A DNA stretch of 64,000 nucleotides from a virus. The stretch spans positions 1 to 64,000 of IMG/VR virus record IMGVR_UViG_3300035142_000030; one strand, given 5' to 3'. The notes below the pieces were generated by a model, which did not search any database, was not told the origin of the DNA, and saw only the letters and a program-made list of their open reading frames with translations. A program made the translations under genes and the position numbers. Below, piece after piece: positions 29,561 through 62,465 of this stretch (its first letter is position 1; each line of letters begins with the position of its first letter).

Positions 29561-29935
29561 ATGAATTTATCAAATCATCAATTTGAATTTCTAAAAGATT
29601 TGTCGTCTTTGATTGATTTTATATCAAATGTCAAAAAAATAAAAATAACAGCTACATGGTTGCATAGACCGCAAGAAGTTCAACAACAATTATATAATGA
29701 AGGTTTAACAAAAACATTAGAATCAAATCATTTGTATAGTTGTGCGATTGATTTAAACATTTTTATTGGAAATCGAATTTTAACAAATTTAAGAAAAAAA
29801 GATTTAACAAAAGAAGAAGTTTATTTGTTAAATGAAATTGGTGCTTTTTGGGAAAATTTAAATAAATTAAATCGTTGGGGTGGTTTTTGGAAATCTATTT
29901 ATGACCCTGGTCACTTTGAACGAAATGTTAAATAA
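29561..29935 (+). CDS. Endolysin, peptidase M15 family (L-Ala-D-Glu peptidase-like)
   Basis: R...Q..LY, SNHLYSCAIDL and RWGGFW...DPGHFE Zn-peptidase motifs. Confidence 0.88.
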   Translation: MNLSNHQFEFLKDLSSLIDFISNVKKIKITATWLHRPQEVQQQLYNEGLTKTLESNHLYSCAIDLNIFIGNRILTNLRKKDLTKEEVYLLNEIGAFWENLNKLNRWGGFWKSIYDPGHFERNVK

Positions 29936-31026: not shown

Positions 31027-31155
31027 ATACAACGTTAAGCTTATGATACGTTGCGTTTAATAACATAACTTTTTGATAAAAATAAAAATTATATAAAATG
31101 AATATACTTAACAAATTAGCAAAATGTAAGCAATGGATTATACGCATTGTTAGCA
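31027..31155. repeat. attC-like site; its loop contains the start of the 31098 gene
   Basis: ATACAAC...TATGATACGTTGC / GCAATGGATTATA...GTTAGCA; homologous to the site at 51269-51398. Confidence 0.7.
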
Positions 31156-31489: not shown

Positions 31490-31762
31490 ATGGATATAGT
31501 AGAACATGCCATTAATAGAATTGAGTTTAATGAACACAAAATAAATGAATCTTTAAAAGAATTAAAAGAACTTAAAGATAATTTAATTGTAAAATATAAA
31601 CATCCTGAAATTGATATTAAGAGATTACTTCAAGATGAAAAATATAGATACATTATAGCACTTAAATTATCGAAAAATAATGTAGAAACTGCTAAATTAT
31701 TAGGAACTACTGAAAGAACATTTTATAGAAAAATGAATGAATTTAATTTACATAACCAATAA
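31490..31762 (+). CDS. Fis-type HTH protein
   Basis: C-terminal ALKLSKNNVETAKLLGTTERTFYRKM matches HTH_8. Confidence 0.75.
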   Translation: MDIVEHAINRIEFNEHKINESLKELKELKDNLIVKYKHPEIDIKRLLQDEKYRYIIALKLSKNNVETAKLLGTTERTFYRKMNEFNLHNQ

Positions 31763-31984: not shown

Positions 31985-32078
31985 TGTCCCGTTTAGAGGT
32001 ATATCCCGAAATAAAAAAAAAACTCGTAGAGTTTTGGGGGTACGGGATGGGTTGTGGGAATACCGAGCAAGCAATGGT

Positions 32079-32151
32079 TTATAACACAGCGGGATTTATG
32101 GGACGGTTTGGGGCTTTTGCCCCAAAATGGACTATGAAATCACAGTTAGGC
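32079..32151. repeat. attC-like site B
   Basis: TTATAAC...GATTTATGG / CTATGAAATC (extrahelical G)...GTTAGGC with an internal TTTGGGGC-TTTT-GCCCCAAA hairpin. Confidence 0.75.
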
Positions 32152-32166
32152 ATAAAATTTTTTGAT

Positions 32167-32367
32167 ATGGAATTTATAGTAGAATTAGAAGAAGGTGTTT
32201 ATTTGGCTACTTGGTCTGGCGACCCTGGGCGAACACTAAAGATTGAAAACGCACAAGTATTTGTCCGCGATAAAGATGCTGATAATGCTCTTGTTAGAGC
32301 CAGATATTATAGACCATTTAAGTATGCCAAAGTGCGAAGGCAAAAGGAAGGGTTGCGAAGCAGCTAA
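32167..32367 (+). CDS. Cassette gene, hypothetical (MEFIVELEEGVYLATWSGDPG...)
   Basis: Start re-called downstream of site B; lies in a body with 13-bp complementary ends. Confidence 0.65.
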   Translation: MEFIVELEEGVYLATWSGDPGRTLKIENAQVFVRDKDADNALVRARYYRPFKYAKVRRQKEGLRSS

Positions 32368-32386
32368 GGATGGGGGGGATTTTTAT

Positions 32387-32479
32387 GCCTAACGGTTTGG
32401 CTATGTTTAGTAGCCTAACCACTAACTTTGAAATATTTACTAAATTTGCATAGGCTATTAAATATAGCTTTTGTTATAA
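32387..32479. repeat. attC-like site C
   Basis: GCCTAAC...GCTATGTTTAGTAGCCTA / TAGGCTATTAAATATAGC...GTTATAA; 18-bp stem with two G-T pairs on the + strand. Confidence 0.8.
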
Positions 32480-32483
32480 ACTT

Positions 32484-32638
32484 TTAAGGGGGCTTCTTCG
32501 GAAGTATCAGCAGAAGGGGAACTTCGATAGCACAGTTGGTATGAGGCAACGACTTCAAACATCGTATATCGTAGGTTCGATTCCTACCGAATGACTTAAA
32601 ACGAGGCGTTACTGCACGCCTACCCTCTGCCCCCTTAA
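32484..32638 (+). ncRNA. Structured RNA with an embedded degenerate tRNA domain
   Basis: Terminal 10-bp stem TTAAGGGGGC/GCCCCCTTAA, C(UUCG)G hairpin, D-loop AGTTGGTA, anticodon arm ACGA..TCGT, T arm GTAGG-TTCGATT-CCTAC, extra AGGCGT/ACGCCT hairpin. Confidence 0.6.
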
Positions 32639-32745
32639 TTGTTTTATAACTATTAAATAAACACACCTGCATTAAAACTATTATATTTAATATAAATTTT
32701 AATATAAAAATCAAGAATTACCATAAAATTAGGGGAAATTTTTAT

Positions 32746-34121: not shown

Positions 34122-35405
34122 ATGGATACACAATTTTTTACAATAGATGAAATATCAGCCAAAAACTTTAAAGGGCTTAAAGATTTTAAAGCTGACCTAA
34201 ATAATGTTTCTGTAATATTATCAGGATCAGAAGGAGTAGGCAAGTCTAATATCTATCATTTGGTTGAAGGATTAAGAAAATTTAAAGGAGCTAAAATTAC
34301 TAAAGGGGAAAAAGAAGGTAGTGGAGAGATCAGCATAAGTAAAGGGGACACTAACTATCGATTCTGCTTTAGTTTTACAGAGGACAATAAACATAAACTA
34401 ACAACATATGTAGATGGAGAAGCTAAACCGATAACAAAAGCAAGGCAAGCTTATATTTTAGAACAACTATTAGCTCCAACATTTGATATTGATGCCTTAT
34501 TAAACTCTTCAGGACAGAAACAAGCAGAAATGGTAAAAGAGGCTTTACGGATAGATACTGTAAAAGAAGAGGCATACTACCAACAGAAGTTTGAAGAAAG
34601 AAGAGATTTAAAAAGGGATTTATCTAAAAATCCTAAACCAGAAGAAGTGCCGGAAGCTAAAGAGGTAGACATAAATGATCTTTTAAAGCAGAAAAAGGCG
34701 ATAGAAGAATTTAATGCTGAACAAGACGCTAAACAAAAGATTATAGATTTCTATTTATCTATGAGTAAGAAGTTAGATAAACAGATTACCGATCCTGGTT
34801 CAGATGCTTACCTTAAACATATAGCTACCTCTAAAAACATGCATAAAGATATTATTAAGTTTATCACAGAAAACATTTTCAAGTTAGATCAACCTAAAAA
34901 ACATAAAACGCTTGAAGATGTAAATAGAAGCCTTGAGGGTGCGCAAAAGACTAACGAGAACGCTTTAGCTTATAAAAAATATTTGAGCTCTATAAAGGCT
35001 TTTAATGAGCTTAAAATAAAAGTTGATAAAGCAGAAGATGAAGTAAAGGAGGCTAGAGAAAGATTGTTAAACAAGATGAAGCAAGTGGACATTCCTGTGG
35101 ACGGGCTTGAACTAGATATGCAGATGTCAGATAGTGGAAAGATAAGCACTACATTAACTTATAATGGGCTAGAGATGAACGATGCTAATATTAATACGAG
35201 TAAAAAATACGCCATTGCAGCTTACTTACAAATGAATTTATTTAAAGAAGGGAATCTAGGAGTATTCCATGTTAATTCTTCATTTATGAGTAATTCTACA
35301 TTGCAAGATATAGCAAGGGAGTGTAGAAGATTAAATTTACAATGTCTTTTTGAGATAACTAGTAGAAAAGCTAATGAACCACTTAAAGTTGAATCTATTT
35401 TATAA
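34122..35405 (+). CDS. SMC/SbcC/RecN-like P-loop ATPase
   Basis: ISAKNFKGLKD, Walker A GSEGVGKS, central coiled coil. Confidence 0.75.
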   Translation: MDTQFFTIDEISAKNFKGLKDFKADLNNVSVILSGSEGVGKSNIYHLVEGLRKFKGAKITKGEKEGSGEISISKGDTNYRFCFSFTEDNKHKLTTYVDGEAKPITKARQAYILEQLLAPTFDIDALLNSSGQKQAEMVKEALRIDTVKEEAYYQQKFEERRDLKRDLSKNPKPEEVPEAKEVDINDLLKQKKAIEEFNAEQDAKQKIIDFYLSMSKKLDKQITDPGSDAYLKHIATSKNMHKDIIKFITENIFKLDQPKKHKTLEDVNRSLEGAQKTNENALAYKKYLSSIKAFNELKIKVDKAEDEVKEARERLLNKMKQVDIPVDGLELDMQMSDSGKISTTLTYNGLEMNDANINTSKKYAIAAYLQMNLFKEGNLGVFHVNSSFMSNSTLQDIARECRRLNLQCLFEITSRKANEPLKVESIL

Positions 35406-45702: not shown

Positions 45703-46010
45703 TCAATCGCTTGCACTCCTTCCCTCATTTAAAATTGTATCAATTTGTTATTTTAAATGCTAAAATATCAACAGTTAATCGGATTTAATACGGTTAATTG
45801 CTTATATTTAAACAATTTTAAATTCCATCCTTACAACCCTCAAAATGCCAAATATTATTTTGCCTAACAATTTGGAAAATAAGCCTTCACACAAGTCCTT
45901 TAACGTCTCTTCTATCTGTTGCATTTTACCTAATATTACAATGCCTAACTAGTAAATAAAGTCCATAAAAATCAAAACTCTGTGTTTATAAAAAATAAAA
46001 CCACCGCACA

Positions 46011-48118: not shown

Positions 48119-48218
48119 CGCTAACAAGCGGTCATAGTTAATAAAGCCAATTAAGTTTAGTTCGTTGTAGGTTGCGGTAGTGGGTGGCTTTACTAACCAT
48201 ACCGCATCTACGTTACAG
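48119..48218. repeat. attC-like site F
   Basis: CGCTAAC-AA-GCGGTCATAGTTAATAAAGCCA / TGGCTTTACTAACCATACCGC-ATCTAC-GTTACAG, with an extra C in the left arm. Confidence 0.82.
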
Positions 48219-48266
48219 ACAATTGCCCGCACGGCATTCCGCACGGGCTATCGCTCACAACCCACT

Positions 48267-48623
48267 CTAAATTTTGTTTAGAATTTGTTCCAACGCCCAA
48301 TACTCTGGATTTGCAAGAGCAGTAACTACATTATTAATATCACAAATACTAATAATCAGCCAAATACATAAAATGATTGCAAGTATAACAATTGCAATCC
48401 AATGTCCAACTTCAGTATCATTATCATAGCATTTTTGATAATTTTTAGCAAACCATTTTATGTATCGCACATATGGTATAATTAAGAGAAAAGAAATAAT
48501 GATTAAGGTAATTCCCACAAATGCATCAATAGGTGCTTGCTTAATCATAACTCCCCACAAGTATTCGGTCGTTGTACCAAGCTTACTTGCTAAGCTTTCT
48601 AATAATGTTGTTAATTCATTCAT
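48267..48623 (-). CDS. Two-TM cassette protein
   Basis: LASKLGTTTEYLW...NPEYWAL; body ends GTTACAGACAATTG / CAATTGTCTGTAAC. Confidence 0.7.
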   Translation of the reverse strand: MNELTTLLESLASKLGTTTEYLWGVMIKQAPIDAFVGITLIIISFLLIIPYVRYIKWFAKNYQKCYDNDTEVGHWIAIVILAIILCIWLIISICDINNVVTALANPEYWALEQILNKI

Positions 48624-48666
48624 TTTAATATAATTTAGTTAAACAAAATTTTCTAATGTCAATTGT

Positions 48667-48814
48667 CTGTAACAGTCGCCTAAATACAGCATTCGTCGCA
48701 GCTTCGTATCAAATTGGTTCATATCGTATTGAAACCCTAAGGCAACTATCTGTAACTACTAAATACAAGCCAGCGAGACAAGCTCGCCATCGTGTATTTA
48801 GGCGACTGTTAGAT
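48667..48814. repeat. attC-like site G with perfect 19-bp arms
   Basis: TAACAGTCGCCTAAATACA / TGTATTTAGGCGACTGTTA. Confidence 0.8.
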
Positions 48815-49001
48815 TCCATACTCCCACGGCATTCCCACAAACCCCGCTACGCCCCACCGCACAAAAACCATCGTATGAAATCTAATGGTACGGCAAGTAG
48901 TACCACTCGCTCAATACCATTTACGTATCTGAATCTTATTACTTCCTCCAACGTACAGAATCTAACTGTCAAGTCAGAGGAAAGTAATTTTAGAACTCAT
49001 T

Positions 49002-49226
49002 CTAAACAATACGTTTACAGCTTAATTCCCAATGTACTTGTTCGGCAACTTTTAATCTACGAACTGAACTTTTTCCAGTTTCAGGTAATTTGCCTTCATT
49101 TAACCATAATAATATCATTTGTATAAAGTTGCCTGCTGGCAATTCTACTTTTTGACCTTTACCATCTATATAATAAACTGTATCAGTCAATTCGCTGTAA
49201 ACTAATTCTTTTTTTTGCTCAATCAT
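49002..49226 (-). CDS. Hypothetical protein enclosed by an 18-bp inverted repeat
   Basis: 74 aa; arms at 48884-48901 and 49276-49293. Confidence 0.6.
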   Translation of the reverse strand: MIEQKKELVYSELTDTVYYIDGKGQKVELPAGNFIQMILLWLNEGKLPETGKSSVRRLKVAEQVHWELSCKRIV

Positions 49227-49396
49227 TTCTATATAATTTTATCTGTTAATAAACAATGTTCTAAAATTCCCATCCACTACTTGCCGTACCATTGTAACTC
49301 AATTGACAGCTCTCCATCCGCACAAGGCTTCCCATCCGCCCCGCAAAATACCAAAGCAATTGAGTTACAACGCTCGGAGTTCATTCGATGTAAAAA

Positions 49397-49651
49397 TTAT
49401 GAAACACCGAGTTTATGAGCTTCTTCATCAAATGCAATTTTTATATTTGTAATTTCAGTTTGAATTTCTAATAAAAGTTCATGAAATTCTTGTTGCTTAT
49501 CTTCAATTTGTTTGTCAGCAAATTGCATTTTTGAAATTATGTTCTCCTTATAAGCATAAGCAGAGTTCAAATCATTTTTTAATTTTGTGTGCTTAGCTTT
49601 AAGAACATCAAGTCTATTTAAGTAATTACCATACTGTTCTTGAAAATTCAT
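49397..49651 (-). CDS. Coiled-coil cassette protein
   Basis: 84 aa. Confidence 0.6.
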   Translation of the reverse strand: MNFQEQYGNYLNRLDVLKAKHTKLKNDLNSAYAYKENIISKMQFADKQIEDKQQEFHELLLEIQTEITNIKIAFDEEAHKLGVS

Positions 49652-49700
49652 AATTTTTACCTTTCTATATTTAAGTTTATAATGTTCGATACGTCACAGC

Positions 49701-49810
49701 GTACAACTACGTGTAATGCAGAATTGCTACAATCGAATGATGCCGATTTACGGCTTTACTTTGCCTTGCGGCAAATCGCCGCAACTCAGCATACACTCCG
49801 AGCGTTATGC
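49701..49810. repeat. attC-like site
   Basis: GTACAAC-TAC-GTGTAATGCAGAATTGC / GCAACTCAGCATACAC-TCCGAGC-GTTATGC. Confidence 0.75.
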
Positions 49811-49842
49811 GTAAAAATACCCGCATCCTAGTTCGCTAACGC

Positions 49843-49938
49843 TCACCCATCCGCATCCTCCCACTTATCAATATACAATTTTAGCTTATAAATAAGTATT
49901 CCTATTACAATTCCGATTCCTATTAATATTAAATTCAT
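49843..49938 (-). CDS. 31-aa single-TM micropeptide cassette gene
   Basis: MNLILIGIGIVIGILIYKLKLYIDKWEDADG; fills a body with 16-bp complementary ends. Confidence 0.55.
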   Translation of the reverse strand: MNLILIGIGIVIGILIYKLKLYIDKWEDADG

Positions 49939-50095
49939 ATCCAAATATTTTTACGCATAACACCAGAGAAAATATACCGTCCCGCAGGAGACGTTCTCCA
50001 GTATCTGCAAGTTTATATTCCTAATATTTCTACTCATAACTAAAAAATCATAGCACATTAAAATCAAAACTCTGTGTTTAATAAAATAAAGCCAA

Positions 50096-50446
50096 TTAAT
50101 ATATATTCTTTCTACCCCTGTCAGCGTGCAATGGTACTAAATGATCACACGAACCGCAAAAATGTTTAGCTTTAGTCTCCCAGTAAATTCCTTCAGAATG
50201 TGTATCAAAAAGCGAATTACAATTGCTACACATCTCAATATGGTCTGGTAGTAAAGGAAAATGTTCTTGTAAATAATAAATTATTGCAAACGCTTTTTTA
50301 GCTGTCATCTTTGGCTGATGCCCACGCTTAAAAGAAAGTTGTTCAGGTAATTCACCTTGTAAAAAATTGTAAAATTCTTCTATCCATTCAAGGTCTGTAT
50401 CAATCCTCTGATCATTATTTTTAAGCAATTTTATTTCATTGTACAT
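50096..50446 (-). CDS. Zn-binding hypothetical protein
   Basis: CSNC...CGSC; enclosed by an 18-bp inverted repeat. Confidence 0.6.
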   Translation of the reverse strand: MYNEIKLLKNNDQRIDTDLEWIEEFYNFLQGELPEQLSFKRGHQPKMTAKKAFAIIYYLQEHFPLLPDHIEMCSNCNSLFDTHSEGIYWETKAKHFCGSCDHLVPLHADRGRKNIY

Positions 50447-50586
50447 AAGGCTTTATTTTTAATTAGTACTAAATTTATAATCATATTTTACCTGTAATTT
50501 CATCAAGTTTCAATCAATGTTTTAATTTTACCGTCCCATATTTTCTCTGGTGTTAGAAAACATGCCGTTTCGAACGGACGCAAAAA

Positions 50587-50868
50587 TCATTTTGCTTTCT
50601 TATATTTAGAGCCTTTACTATTACAAAAATCACATATTGCATTGTTAGGTTTGTTAGATATACATGAACTGCAAAATTTCCATTTTTGCTCATGTTTTCT
50701 AACGGTTTCACGTTCGTTTGATATTAAAATTTGATTGATAAAGTCATTCAATTGGACTATAGCGTATTCAACAGACAACATATCTAATGTGTCTTCATCT
50801 CCAATTGTATCAAGTCTATCCATTAATATCTTACGTATTCCATCAGTATAATCTTTTTTATGTTTCAT
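50587..50868 (-). CDS. Cassette protein with Cys-rich C-terminus
   Basis: CSSC...CDFC. Confidence 0.6.
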   Translation of the reverse strand: MKHKKDYTDGIRKILMDRLDTIGDEDTLDMLSVEYAIVQLNDFINQILISNERETVRKHEQKWKFCSSCISNKPNNAICDFCNSKGSKYKKAK

Positions 50869-50926
50869 AATATCAAATTTTAATTATTAATACTAATTTA
50901 GTTTATCAATTCTCAACGTCACGATT

Positions 50927-51036
50927 TTCTAACCAACGTTTATGCTTAATTAAAGCTATCAAACGATGCTCCGTTAAAGCTTTTCTTGCGTTTCACGCAA
51001 CCGCTTTAACAAAGCATACACGTGAAACCGTTAGAG
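50927..51036. repeat. attC-like site
   Basis: TTCTAAC-CA-ACGTTTATGCTTAATTAAAGC / GCTTTAACAAAGCATACACGT-GAAACC-GTTAGAG. Confidence 0.8.
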
Positions 51037-51041
51037 TGCAT

Positions 51042-51329
51042 TTAATCCAAGTGAATAAGCATTTCTCCCCACGCACTTCTACCTTTCACTTTCGGTAGTG
51101 ATGTGTAGTGTAGTGTCATTCCTGTAAATTCACACTCTTTGTTATTTAAACTTTTTTTAACCATCCAGTCTTTTGCTTCTTTCCTTATAATATCATCTTC
51201 ATTGTTTCGATGCCAGCCCACGCTAATTATCAAATTACCAATTCTAATTTTACTAAGTGAAAAACGCACTCTAACAATAGATAAAATCCATTGCTTAAAA
51301 TGTGCTAATTCGTTACGTAAGTATTTCAT
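51042..51329 (-). CDS. Cassette protein starting inside an attC loop (MKYLRNELAHFKQWILSIVRVR)
   Basis: N-terminus homologous to that of the 31098 protein. Confidence 0.6.
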   Translation of the reverse strand: MKYLRNELAHFKQWILSIVRVRFSLSKIRIGNLIISVGWHRNNEDDIIRKEAKDWMVKKSLNNKECEFTGMTLHYTSLPKVKGRSAWGEMLIHLD

Positions 51330-51398
51330 ATCAATGTTTTTATAAGTTTGAAAATTCAGTTCATTAAATCGCAACGTATCTTATCAGAGCCGTTGCAC
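51269..51398. repeat. attC-like site homologous to 31027-31155
   Basis: CTCTAAC-AATA-GATAAAATCCATTGC / GCAACGTATCTTATC-AGAGCC-GTTGCAC. Confidence 0.8.
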
Positions 51399-61826: not shown

Positions 61827-61924
61827 CCCTAACGCCTTAAAGCGTAAACTCCGTTACATGGAGAACGTAGTTCGGGAATGTAACGAGTTTAAAATGCTGT
61901 AATGGAGTTTACGCATAGTTACAA
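61827..61924. repeat. attC-like site
   Basis: CCCTAAC-GCCTTAAA-GCGTAAACTCCGTTACA / TGTAATGGAGTTTACGC-ATA-GTTACAA. Confidence 0.82.
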
Positions 61925-61976
61925 ACCGTGCCAATGGCACAAAGATTATTAGAATGTTGAACTTAAAATAAATTTT

Positions 61977-62126
61977 ATGAAACGTTTATGTAAAATGAAA
62001 CCATATTATGTAATACCAAGAGTATTTTATATATATGCTGGCTATACTGGATTAGATAATGGATTAGCAATAGGTTGGCTTGGCAGAATGTTTATTATAA
62101 TTATTCCTGTTAATGAAAGGGAATAA
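61977..62126 (+). CDS. 49-aa hydrophobic cassette protein
   Basis: Translated by hand (MKRLCKMKPYYVIPRVFYIY...). Confidence 0.45.
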   Translation: MKRLCKMKPYYVIPRVFYIYAGYTGLDNGLAIGWLGRMFIIIIPVNERE

Positions 62127-62465
62127 AATTTATGCATTTTAGCTTTAAGGCGTTACAAAACCATAGGCAAACAGTGGAAACGGTGAGCGAAGCGAATAAG
62201 TTTCGTTTGCCGTGCCTCGATGGCATGGTTTTGTAACGTACGTGTATACGCCTGTTGGTATGATTATTAATAGTATAAACTTAAATTAATAAATAATAAA
62301 ATTACGTAAATTCGCAAAAATAATAAAGACAACGAAAACAGATTTGCAGAAATGATAATACCCAGAAAAGATATTGATATAATAATTAAGAGACAAAGAT
62401 CAATATTATAACAAAGTGTTAATCAAAAATTGAATGAATAATAAACGTATTAAATATATAATATT

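Follow-up and report, generated by a model that had tools for sequence, protein, structure and literature searches.

The stretch from 32146 to 32473 of this phage genome is probably a single gene cassette of an integron-like system that is common to Bacteroidota and their phages. The cassette would consist of a small gene and its own folded recombination site (the hairpin H2, 32391-32475), and in the free circle the 13-nt right and left arms would pair with each other to form the outer stem (the R box) of one site. Integration by strand exchange at G|TT would split this stem and leave the gene bracketed in the array by its own complementary arms. The enzyme would be a Xer-type tyrosine recombinase, encoded beside chromosomal arrays of Bacteroidota, and the phage, which has no recombinase gene, would carry a CALIN-type cluster whose cassettes are gained or exchanged in infected cells. 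What our alignments show is that homology breaks exactly at AAC and GTT, and that arm and hairpin stay together with cargo that is unrelated from case to case; the recombination itself, its enzyme and strand, the circular intermediate, and the place and time of the arrival of the cassette are what we infer. Against this reading stand the lack of a recombinase in the phage, the lack of an empty allele or circle, a left hairpin (H1) without a match to our site model R1, and the layout of a second array in the same genome.

The phage is a complete IMG/VR virus record (IMGVR_UViG_3300035142_000030), 76,721 bp long, with a G+C content of 31% and direct terminal repeats, and the window, that is the whole stretch of 64,000 nucleotides that was analysed, is its first 64 kb. 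No close relative was found among GenBank phages. We read the large same-strand ORFs at 1-27 kb as the virion module; the cassette region is a 770-nt stretch in which G+C is raised to 0.36-0.46, amid small genes (Table 1). The cassette region and the 125-nt site described below had no blastn match in GenBank phages, and a 69-aa and a 427-aa protein encoded near the cassette had no match in IMG/VR. Five tRNA genes (Leu-TAA, Leu-TAG, Ser-TGA, Gln-TTG, Ile-GAT) lie past the window, at 74183-75014 of the genome (L108:10183-11014). Models of tyrosine recombinases (PF00589), serine recombinases and Y1-HUH transposases matched nothing in the phage even at E<=1, and three other phage fragments, which are incomplete, likewise gave no tyrosine recombinase match. 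Hairpin ends of the IS200/IS605 type were considered and dropped because the phage has no Y1 transposase, and a group I intron or large ornate RNA around the ORF was dropped for want of Rfam support; in an Rfam scan of the window no family reached its gathering score.

Table 1. Features discussed in the text (positions are those of the window, except for the bacterial recombinase genes)
Feature	Position	Strand	Remarks
M15 peptidase (endolysin-like)	29561-29935
125-nt site, copy 1	31031-31151	+	R1 match; ATG + about 20 codons
HTH protein	31490-31762
Outer left arm GTTTATAACA	32077-32086	+	10/10 complementary to 32472-32481; ends in the AAC core that opens H1
Left hairpin H1 (AAC...GTT)	32083-32147	+	65 nt; DNA fold -11.4 kcal/mol, z -3.1
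Cassette left arm GTTAGGCATAAAA	32145-32157	+	core GTTRRRY; 13/13 complementary to 32381-32393; presumed crossover G|TT at 32145/32146
Cargo gene	32170-32367	+	65 aa + stop, small protein; motif W.GDP.RTL...NAQ.F.
Cassette right arm TTTTATGCCTAAC	32381-32393	+	inverse core RYYYAAC; runs straight into H2
Right hairpin H2	32391-32475	+	85 nt core to core; R1 match; DNA fold z -2.7
Outer right arm TGTTATAAAC	32472-32481	+	also start of the next cassette's left arm; presumed crossover G|TT at 32473/32474
GTT...AAC unit with tRNA-like RNA	32473-32650	+	178 nt; RNA fold -58.6 kcal/mol, z -4.9
AAA ATPase	34122-35405
Small-ORF unit, bracketed by GTTATGCGTAAAAATA and its complement	49804-49961	-	33-codon hydrophobic ORF, 49843-49944
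125-nt site, copy 2	51273-51394	-	R1 match; ATG + about 20 codons
376-aa recombinase, Bacteroidota genomes	L126:4355-5485; L127:5018-6148		N-terminal extension of about 100 aa

An earlier, sequence-only reading of this DNA had described two nested pairs of complementary ends around one gene, and both pairs are confirmed at the positions given there (Table 1). The inner arms extend to 16 nt with one mismatch (32142-32157 against 32381-32396) and fit the integron core consensus exactly, GTTAGGC (32145-32151) as GTTRRRY and GCCTAAC (32387-32393) as RYYYAAC. When two 100-nt windows were compared at the same spacing across the genome, an exact inverted repeat of at least 13 nt was seen in 10/2062 window pairs, a count that includes the phage's own arrays; the inner repeat is solid, well outside what chance would give. 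Neither of the outer motifs, TTATAAC and GTTATAA, agrees with the core consensus, and a repeat of at least 10 nt was reached in 16/2000 flank shuffles and in 57/2062 genome-wide window pairs (p ~0.01-0.03). The outer 9-mer GTTTATAAC is not enriched in the window, two further perfect AT-rich inverted repeats of 10-11 nt lie within the same 900 nt, and a third, direct copy of the outer motif is found at 32640-32650. The outer repeat, 10 nt long and AT-rich, is probably real, with modest significance. A pattern search of IMG/VR with GTTANGCNTAAAA...GATATG gave 66 matches, which we set aside as chance because none has the partner arm.

Small one-ORF mobile elements with short inverted ends are found in mycobacteriophages, and the 13-nt terminal inverted repeats that bound the gene could in principle belong to a small transposon or MITE-like element at 32145-32393, or be a chance pair. 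We regard this as very improbable: the flanks (...CACA and GGTT...) hold no target-site duplication, the genome has no second copy and no tyrosine, serine or Y1-HUH recombinase, and the AAC/GTT cores of the arms recur in a whole series of further, private inverted repeats. The count of 10/2062 window pairs rules out chance for the inner repeat.

The hairpin downstream of the gene, H2, runs from AAC through a 5-nt spacer (GGTTT), an 18-bp stem, a loop and a 4-nt spacer (TTTT) to GTT. This is the layout of an attC site, for which an imperfect hairpin of 57-141 nt is expected, with the R and L boxes paired and the central spacer unpaired. As to the extrahelical bases that mark the recombining strand of attC sites, H2 has two G.T pairs on the gene strand and spacers of unequal length (5 and 4 nt), and no clear bulged base. 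For comparison with bacterial sites we used R1, a covariance model made from 14 chromosomal array sites alone, with no phage sequences; the sites come from a Bacteroidetes MAG, from Pseudotamlana agarivorans and from one scaffold labelled Pacearchaeota, and the stem was named by hand on the 14 aligned sites before its pairs were counted. The stem of this family is real and co-varying. Compensatory changes on both sides occur in 13/17 pairs among the 14 sequences, 78% of cells pair as against 36-50% with the partner slid, and the observed values were reached in 0/500 shuffles; the family also has one unpaired column, and a conserved G.U pair in 10/14 sequences. R1 matches H2 over its full length (1-125), core to core, with 35.8 bits (E 1.3e-6 in 124 kb; E 9.5e-9 in a local search with filters off), and H2 is a member of this family of Bacteroidota array sites. 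It would be best explained as the cassette's own folded recombination site, attC-like in kind. The model also matches the two window sites at 31031-31151 and 51273-51394, three sites in the locus L115, one in L114 and two in L002. The R1 sites at 31031-31151 and 32391-32475 are 1.2 kb apart in a phage without integrase, which by R1 makes them a CALIN (at least two sites). H1, an imperfect stem with one bulged base and a GGGGC-TTTT-GCCCC hairpin on top, had no match to R1 with filters off, and because of this we do not place it in the Bacteroidota array-site family.

That H2 belongs to the cassette is suggested by its occurrence in other DNA. When metagenome contigs were scanned for TTATGCCTAAC followed by an H2-type stem, 11 contigs were found, and the same combination is present in L115 (one of the 11, L132, is the same sequence as this IMG/VR locus, and L129 and L137 carry identical sites). 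In the contigs with enough upstream sequence to align, similarity begins at the right arm and stops at the closing GTT, with unrelated DNA on both sides. In 4 contigs, a left arm of the type GTTAGGC.TA lies 158-1480 nt upstream and encloses unrelated cargo, and the start of the left arm, GTTAGGCATA, is found again in metagenome cassettes with other cargo. As arm and hairpin are constant in the 11 contigs while their surroundings change, the right arm and the downstream hairpin appear to form one unit with exchange at GTT, and the left arm would therefore be the complement of the outer stem of that unit. This supports a cassette of about 32146-32473, 328 bp long (the distance from GTT 32145 to GTT 32473), arranged as in integron cassettes, which are cut at G|TT on integrating. 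The sequence-only reading had asked which of the two hairpins, and hence which core, marks the crossover: according to the 11 contigs H2 travels with the cassette, and the crossover would be at its closing GTT. By comparison only, G|TT is the likely exchange point, in that homology among sites sets in at AAC or immediately before it and goes no further than the closing GTT.

The same breaks are seen in a longer, 125-nt AAC...GTT site that holds, besides a hairpin and an AT-rich stretch, an ATG with about 20 codons. Its two copies in the phage are 75% identical, and it is also present in the phage contigs L114 and L115, which are otherwise unrelated to this phage. Homology sets in right after AAC and ends at GTTAG, after which four different gene bodies follow, three of them bracketed by complementary arms of their own. 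At the protein level, the N-terminus that they share (..LA..KQWI..IV) is followed, from GTTAG on, by two unrelated bodies in this phage and by a further two in L114 and L115.

The gene between the inner arms had been described as a single gene of 66 aa. There is indeed one ORF; its length is 66 codons, that is 65 residues and a stop. The protein has no Pfam or PHROG match, and a word-index protein search gave no candidates; a full HMMER profile search, with a two-sequence profile, found a family of 468 cluster representatives at E<=1e-3. The family members are 61-81 aa long and share the same starting motif, ..IVELE.GVW.A.W.GDP.RTL, which fixes the start at 32170, 13 nt past the left arm. Judged by these homologues, the ORF is a real gene of a broad small-protein family. 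Among 37 IMG/VR loci that encode a relative, a bracketing repeat was found in only one, L069 on the record G001, where GTTAGAAATCT and AGATTTCTAAC enclose the homologue in the same position with respect to the gene as the arms here. By tblastx, the cargo gene is the only thing that G001 and this phage have in common. A third homologue, in L002, is flanked by two R1 sites. We count this pattern for the cassette reading, as a sign that the gene may move as a unit.

The sequence-only reading had gone further and proposed a nested insertion, with one prior self-complementary site made up of GTTTATAAC, H1 and GTTATAAAC, into which the 328-bp cassette entered at G|TT, H1 being the hairpin of the target and H2 that of the cassette. 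We consider this unlikely, though well within consideration. The observed order of target arm, target hairpin, cassette, cassette hairpin and target arm is the expected product of an integron-type insertion, H2 is tied to the right arm of the cassette in other DNA, as this history requires, and the outer arms, complementary at 10/10 positions (p ~0.01-0.03), abut AAC/GTT cores; the outer left arm is possibly an R''-like right arm, either of the preceding unit or of the former target site. Set against this, H1 falls outside the site family, the significance of the outer repeat is no more than modest, and the right outer arm pairs better with 32629-32650, in the 22-nt imperfect stem that closes the neighbouring tRNA-like unit. 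The left outer copy (32077-32086) is moreover a direct repeat of 32640-32650, and therefore the outer complementarity may only reflect neighbouring units with similar cores. In bacterial arrays the arms across a site are not complementary, which makes the pattern unusual, and one case of it proves nothing. The empty allele that had been suggested as a check was found neither in the source run nor in the metagenome or virus collections. The one run that holds the phage, consisting of assembled contigs (which drop rare variants) and probably the sample from which the phage was assembled, contained no circular form, empty allele, variant joint or other letters. No RNA dataset was listed as containing the phage. 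Of the earlier proposal, a one-gene cassette joined at G|TT holds up, on the consensus cores, the R1 match and the 11 contigs, and so does the 328-bp unit; its entry into a single pre-existing palindromic site, which its removal would restore, is the less likely part.

With the 3' end of the 125-nt site as a pattern, chromosomal matches were obtained in the Bacteroidetes MAG, in P. agarivorans and in the one "Pacearchaeota"-labelled scaffold. The arrays there are long. Their cassettes, of 230-1500 nt, are bracketed by 13-15-nt arms (GTT and about 10 nt ... AAC, with one fixed mismatch), sites of 117-127 nt or 184-189 nt come between one cassette and the next, and the strand with the G.T pairs runs antisense to the genes of the cassettes. 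The cargo includes RDD family, DMP19-like, PLD nuclease, choloylglycine hydrolase, thioredoxin-like and Lcl_C proteins. In two Bacteroidota genomes, a 376-aa Xer-type tyrosine recombinase is encoded upstream of the arrays, at a distance of 0.6 kb in one and 2.6 kb in the other; the proteins share 55% identity. Their best family is the Xer-type model NF040815 (223 and 221 bits, cut-off 220). Against the integron-integrase model TIGR02249 they score 204 and 188 bits (cut-off 265) and leave unmatched the model positions 179-240, which we take to be the place of the IntI-specific extra domain; by that test, the recombinase is thus not IntI. It is the likely candidate for the enzyme of the system. 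An IntI with attI beside the array, one criterion for an integron, was found neither for the phage nor for the bacterial arrays.

The complementary ends could also act in RNA, as long-range stems that enclose each cistron or small RNA in the transcript and serve its processing, its stability or the control of its translation, much as processing stems bracket rRNAs. In the phage, 15/18 segments fold better as the gene strand than as the antisense strand, arm mismatches are mostly G.U on the gene strand, loops are G-rich on that strand, and the adjoining unit at 32473-32650 is a structured RNA. As the main explanation we find this improbable. The genes of the bacterial arrays lie opposite the G.T strand, and therefore the conserved fold cannot be a feature of the mRNA there; homology between unrelated genomes stops exactly at the cores, a recombinase gene adjoins the bacterial arrays, and a site of the cluster in the Polaribacter phage P12002L recombines with IntI1 as single-stranded DNA (PMC9892861). 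DNA and RNA roles could coexist, with a second, RNA-level use in phages.

The adjoining unit has a core that resembles a tRNA, with 25.2 bits to the Rfam tRNA model (positions 8-63), under the gathering score of 29, and ARAGORN found no tRNA in it. The T arm and D loop are intact, the acceptor stem is broken, there is no CCA, and a UUCG hairpin is present. The unit is closed by a 22-nt imperfect stem whose 5' half is the outer right arm and whose partner is 32629-32650; in it, GTTATAAA... of the outer right arm pairs with ...TTTATAAC at 32643-32650. The tRNA-like RNA is placed in its GTT...AAC unit as if it were cassette cargo. Its T arm and the CGAA that follows resemble some phage tRNA genes, its T-arm pattern found ordinary tRNA genes only, and a 22-nt piece of it had no match in metagenome contigs.

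A scan of the genome for exact arms revealed private inverted repeats, 12-19 nt long and for the most part perfect, that form a chain in which neighbours overlap by 3-4 nt at TAAC/GTTA cores (with the variants AAT/ATT and CAAC/GTTG). The chain is near-gapless from 48212 to 51275, with more pairs to 52168 and a separate segment pair at 61830-62238. The cassette fits the same pattern, with AAC 32083...GTT 32147 (H1), GTT 32145...AAC 32393 (the gene), AAC 32391...GTT 32475 (H2) and GTT 32473...AAC 32650 (the tRNA-like unit). In the second array (48-52 kb), genes lie as often in AAC...GTT as in GTT...AAC segments, and many stems are perfect and spacerless. About 30 nt at each end of the small-ORF unit at 49804-49961 resemble the ends of the cassette, with two compensated arm changes. 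A third, degenerate copy of the 5' end, followed by a 6-codon stub, was noticed at 45826-45868. Elsewhere in the array, at 49958-49983 and 50530-50555, 18-nt arms are each followed, further inside, by the same 8-nt direct repeat, ACCGTCCC, and the pair resembles the outcome of a gene's entry, with duplication, into a simple hairpin loop; as this is one pair only, the repeat was dropped as a sign of insertion into hairpin loops. In the short segments of the chain, the loops are rich in G on the gene strand. G-rich runs on that strand fit a G-quadruplex pattern at 32027-32073 (+), 48808-48886 (-) and 49291-49371 (-), for example GGGGG-TAC-GGG-AT-GGG-TTGT-GGG; motifs such as GGATGGG and GTGGGAAT.CCG are repeated beside arms, and GGA motifs like those of CsrA were also remarked in G-rich loops.

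The cassette belongs to a kind that is already published. CALINs, that is attC clusters without an integrase, have been described in virulent phages including the Polaribacter phage P12002L, with methyltransferase genes (Qi et al. 2023, PMC9892861), and IntI1 recombines one P12002L site at G|TTRRRY, on the bottom strand only and as single-stranded DNA; 2-3 sites per phage were reported, found with general attC tools (PMC9892861). R1 has five matches in P12002L (E<=4e-4), all in the accessory-gene region beside methyltransferase genes, and we link them to the published CALIN by this shared neighbourhood rather than by site coordinates. On these matches we assign the cassette to the kind in print: like P12002L, our phage lacks an integrase and has small genes between folded AAC...GTT sites that match R1. 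The 13-14-nt complementary arms of each cargo, the private repeat chain and the start-codon sites are described here and are absent from that report (PMC9892861). A limited literature search brought up no publication that deals with the Xer-type enzyme, with the 13-14-nt arms or with the start-codon sites.

With classical and sedentary chromosomal integrons, the system shares GTTRRRY/RYYYAAC cores at the ends of the cargo, sites of 85-127 nt that fold into imperfect hairpins with the spacers next to the cores unpaired, the loss of homology at GTT and, in the bacterial arrays, a recombinase gene at one end of long and diverse arrays of accessory genes. There are clear differences as well. The outer complementary stem is 13-14 nt here and 7 in the classical case, fixed G.T mismatches stand where attC has extrahelical bases, and the recombinase beside the bacterial arrays is Xer-like and below the integron-integrase cut-off. 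The phage genes share a strand with the G.T pairs, in contrast to those of the bacterial arrays, and the second array of the phage, with genes in both segment orientations and perfect spacerless stems, is unlike classical attC sites. Another comparison is with the PeSL cassettes of T4-type phages, which are direct repeats of one promoter and stem-loop motif that work by homologous recombination (Arbiol et al. 2010, PMC2839356). Both have small accessory phage genes with structured intergenic flanks that mediate gene shuffling, and one site type here also carries a start codon and about 20 codons. In PeSL terms, however, the two hairpins here are unrelated in sequence, the arms are inverted rather than direct and each cargo has its own, with only the 3-4-nt cores in common.

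Beyond the single cassette, we tentatively propose a wider picture, to which we give slightly less than an even chance. Integron-like exchange would extend across Bacteroidota, with a 376-aa Xer-type recombinase that lacks the extra domain of integron integrases and with sites marked by a 13-14-nt outer stem and fixed G.T pairs; virulent phages would draw on the cassette pool and feed it, their cargo flipped onto the folding strand. Some sites would serve as translation starts that place one N-terminus on many bodies, and the cargo could be a structured RNA, such as the tRNA-like unit.

The accessory genes of phages are mosaic. The cassette described here ties a wetland phage to a site family of flavobacterial chromosomes and of a cultured Polaribacter phage; the footprint of a nested insertion would in itself add little to this. 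The cassette supplies concrete parts for experiment, namely a site, a crossover point and a candidate enzyme, and the shared site family points to site-specific exchange of single genes between hosts and virulent phages.
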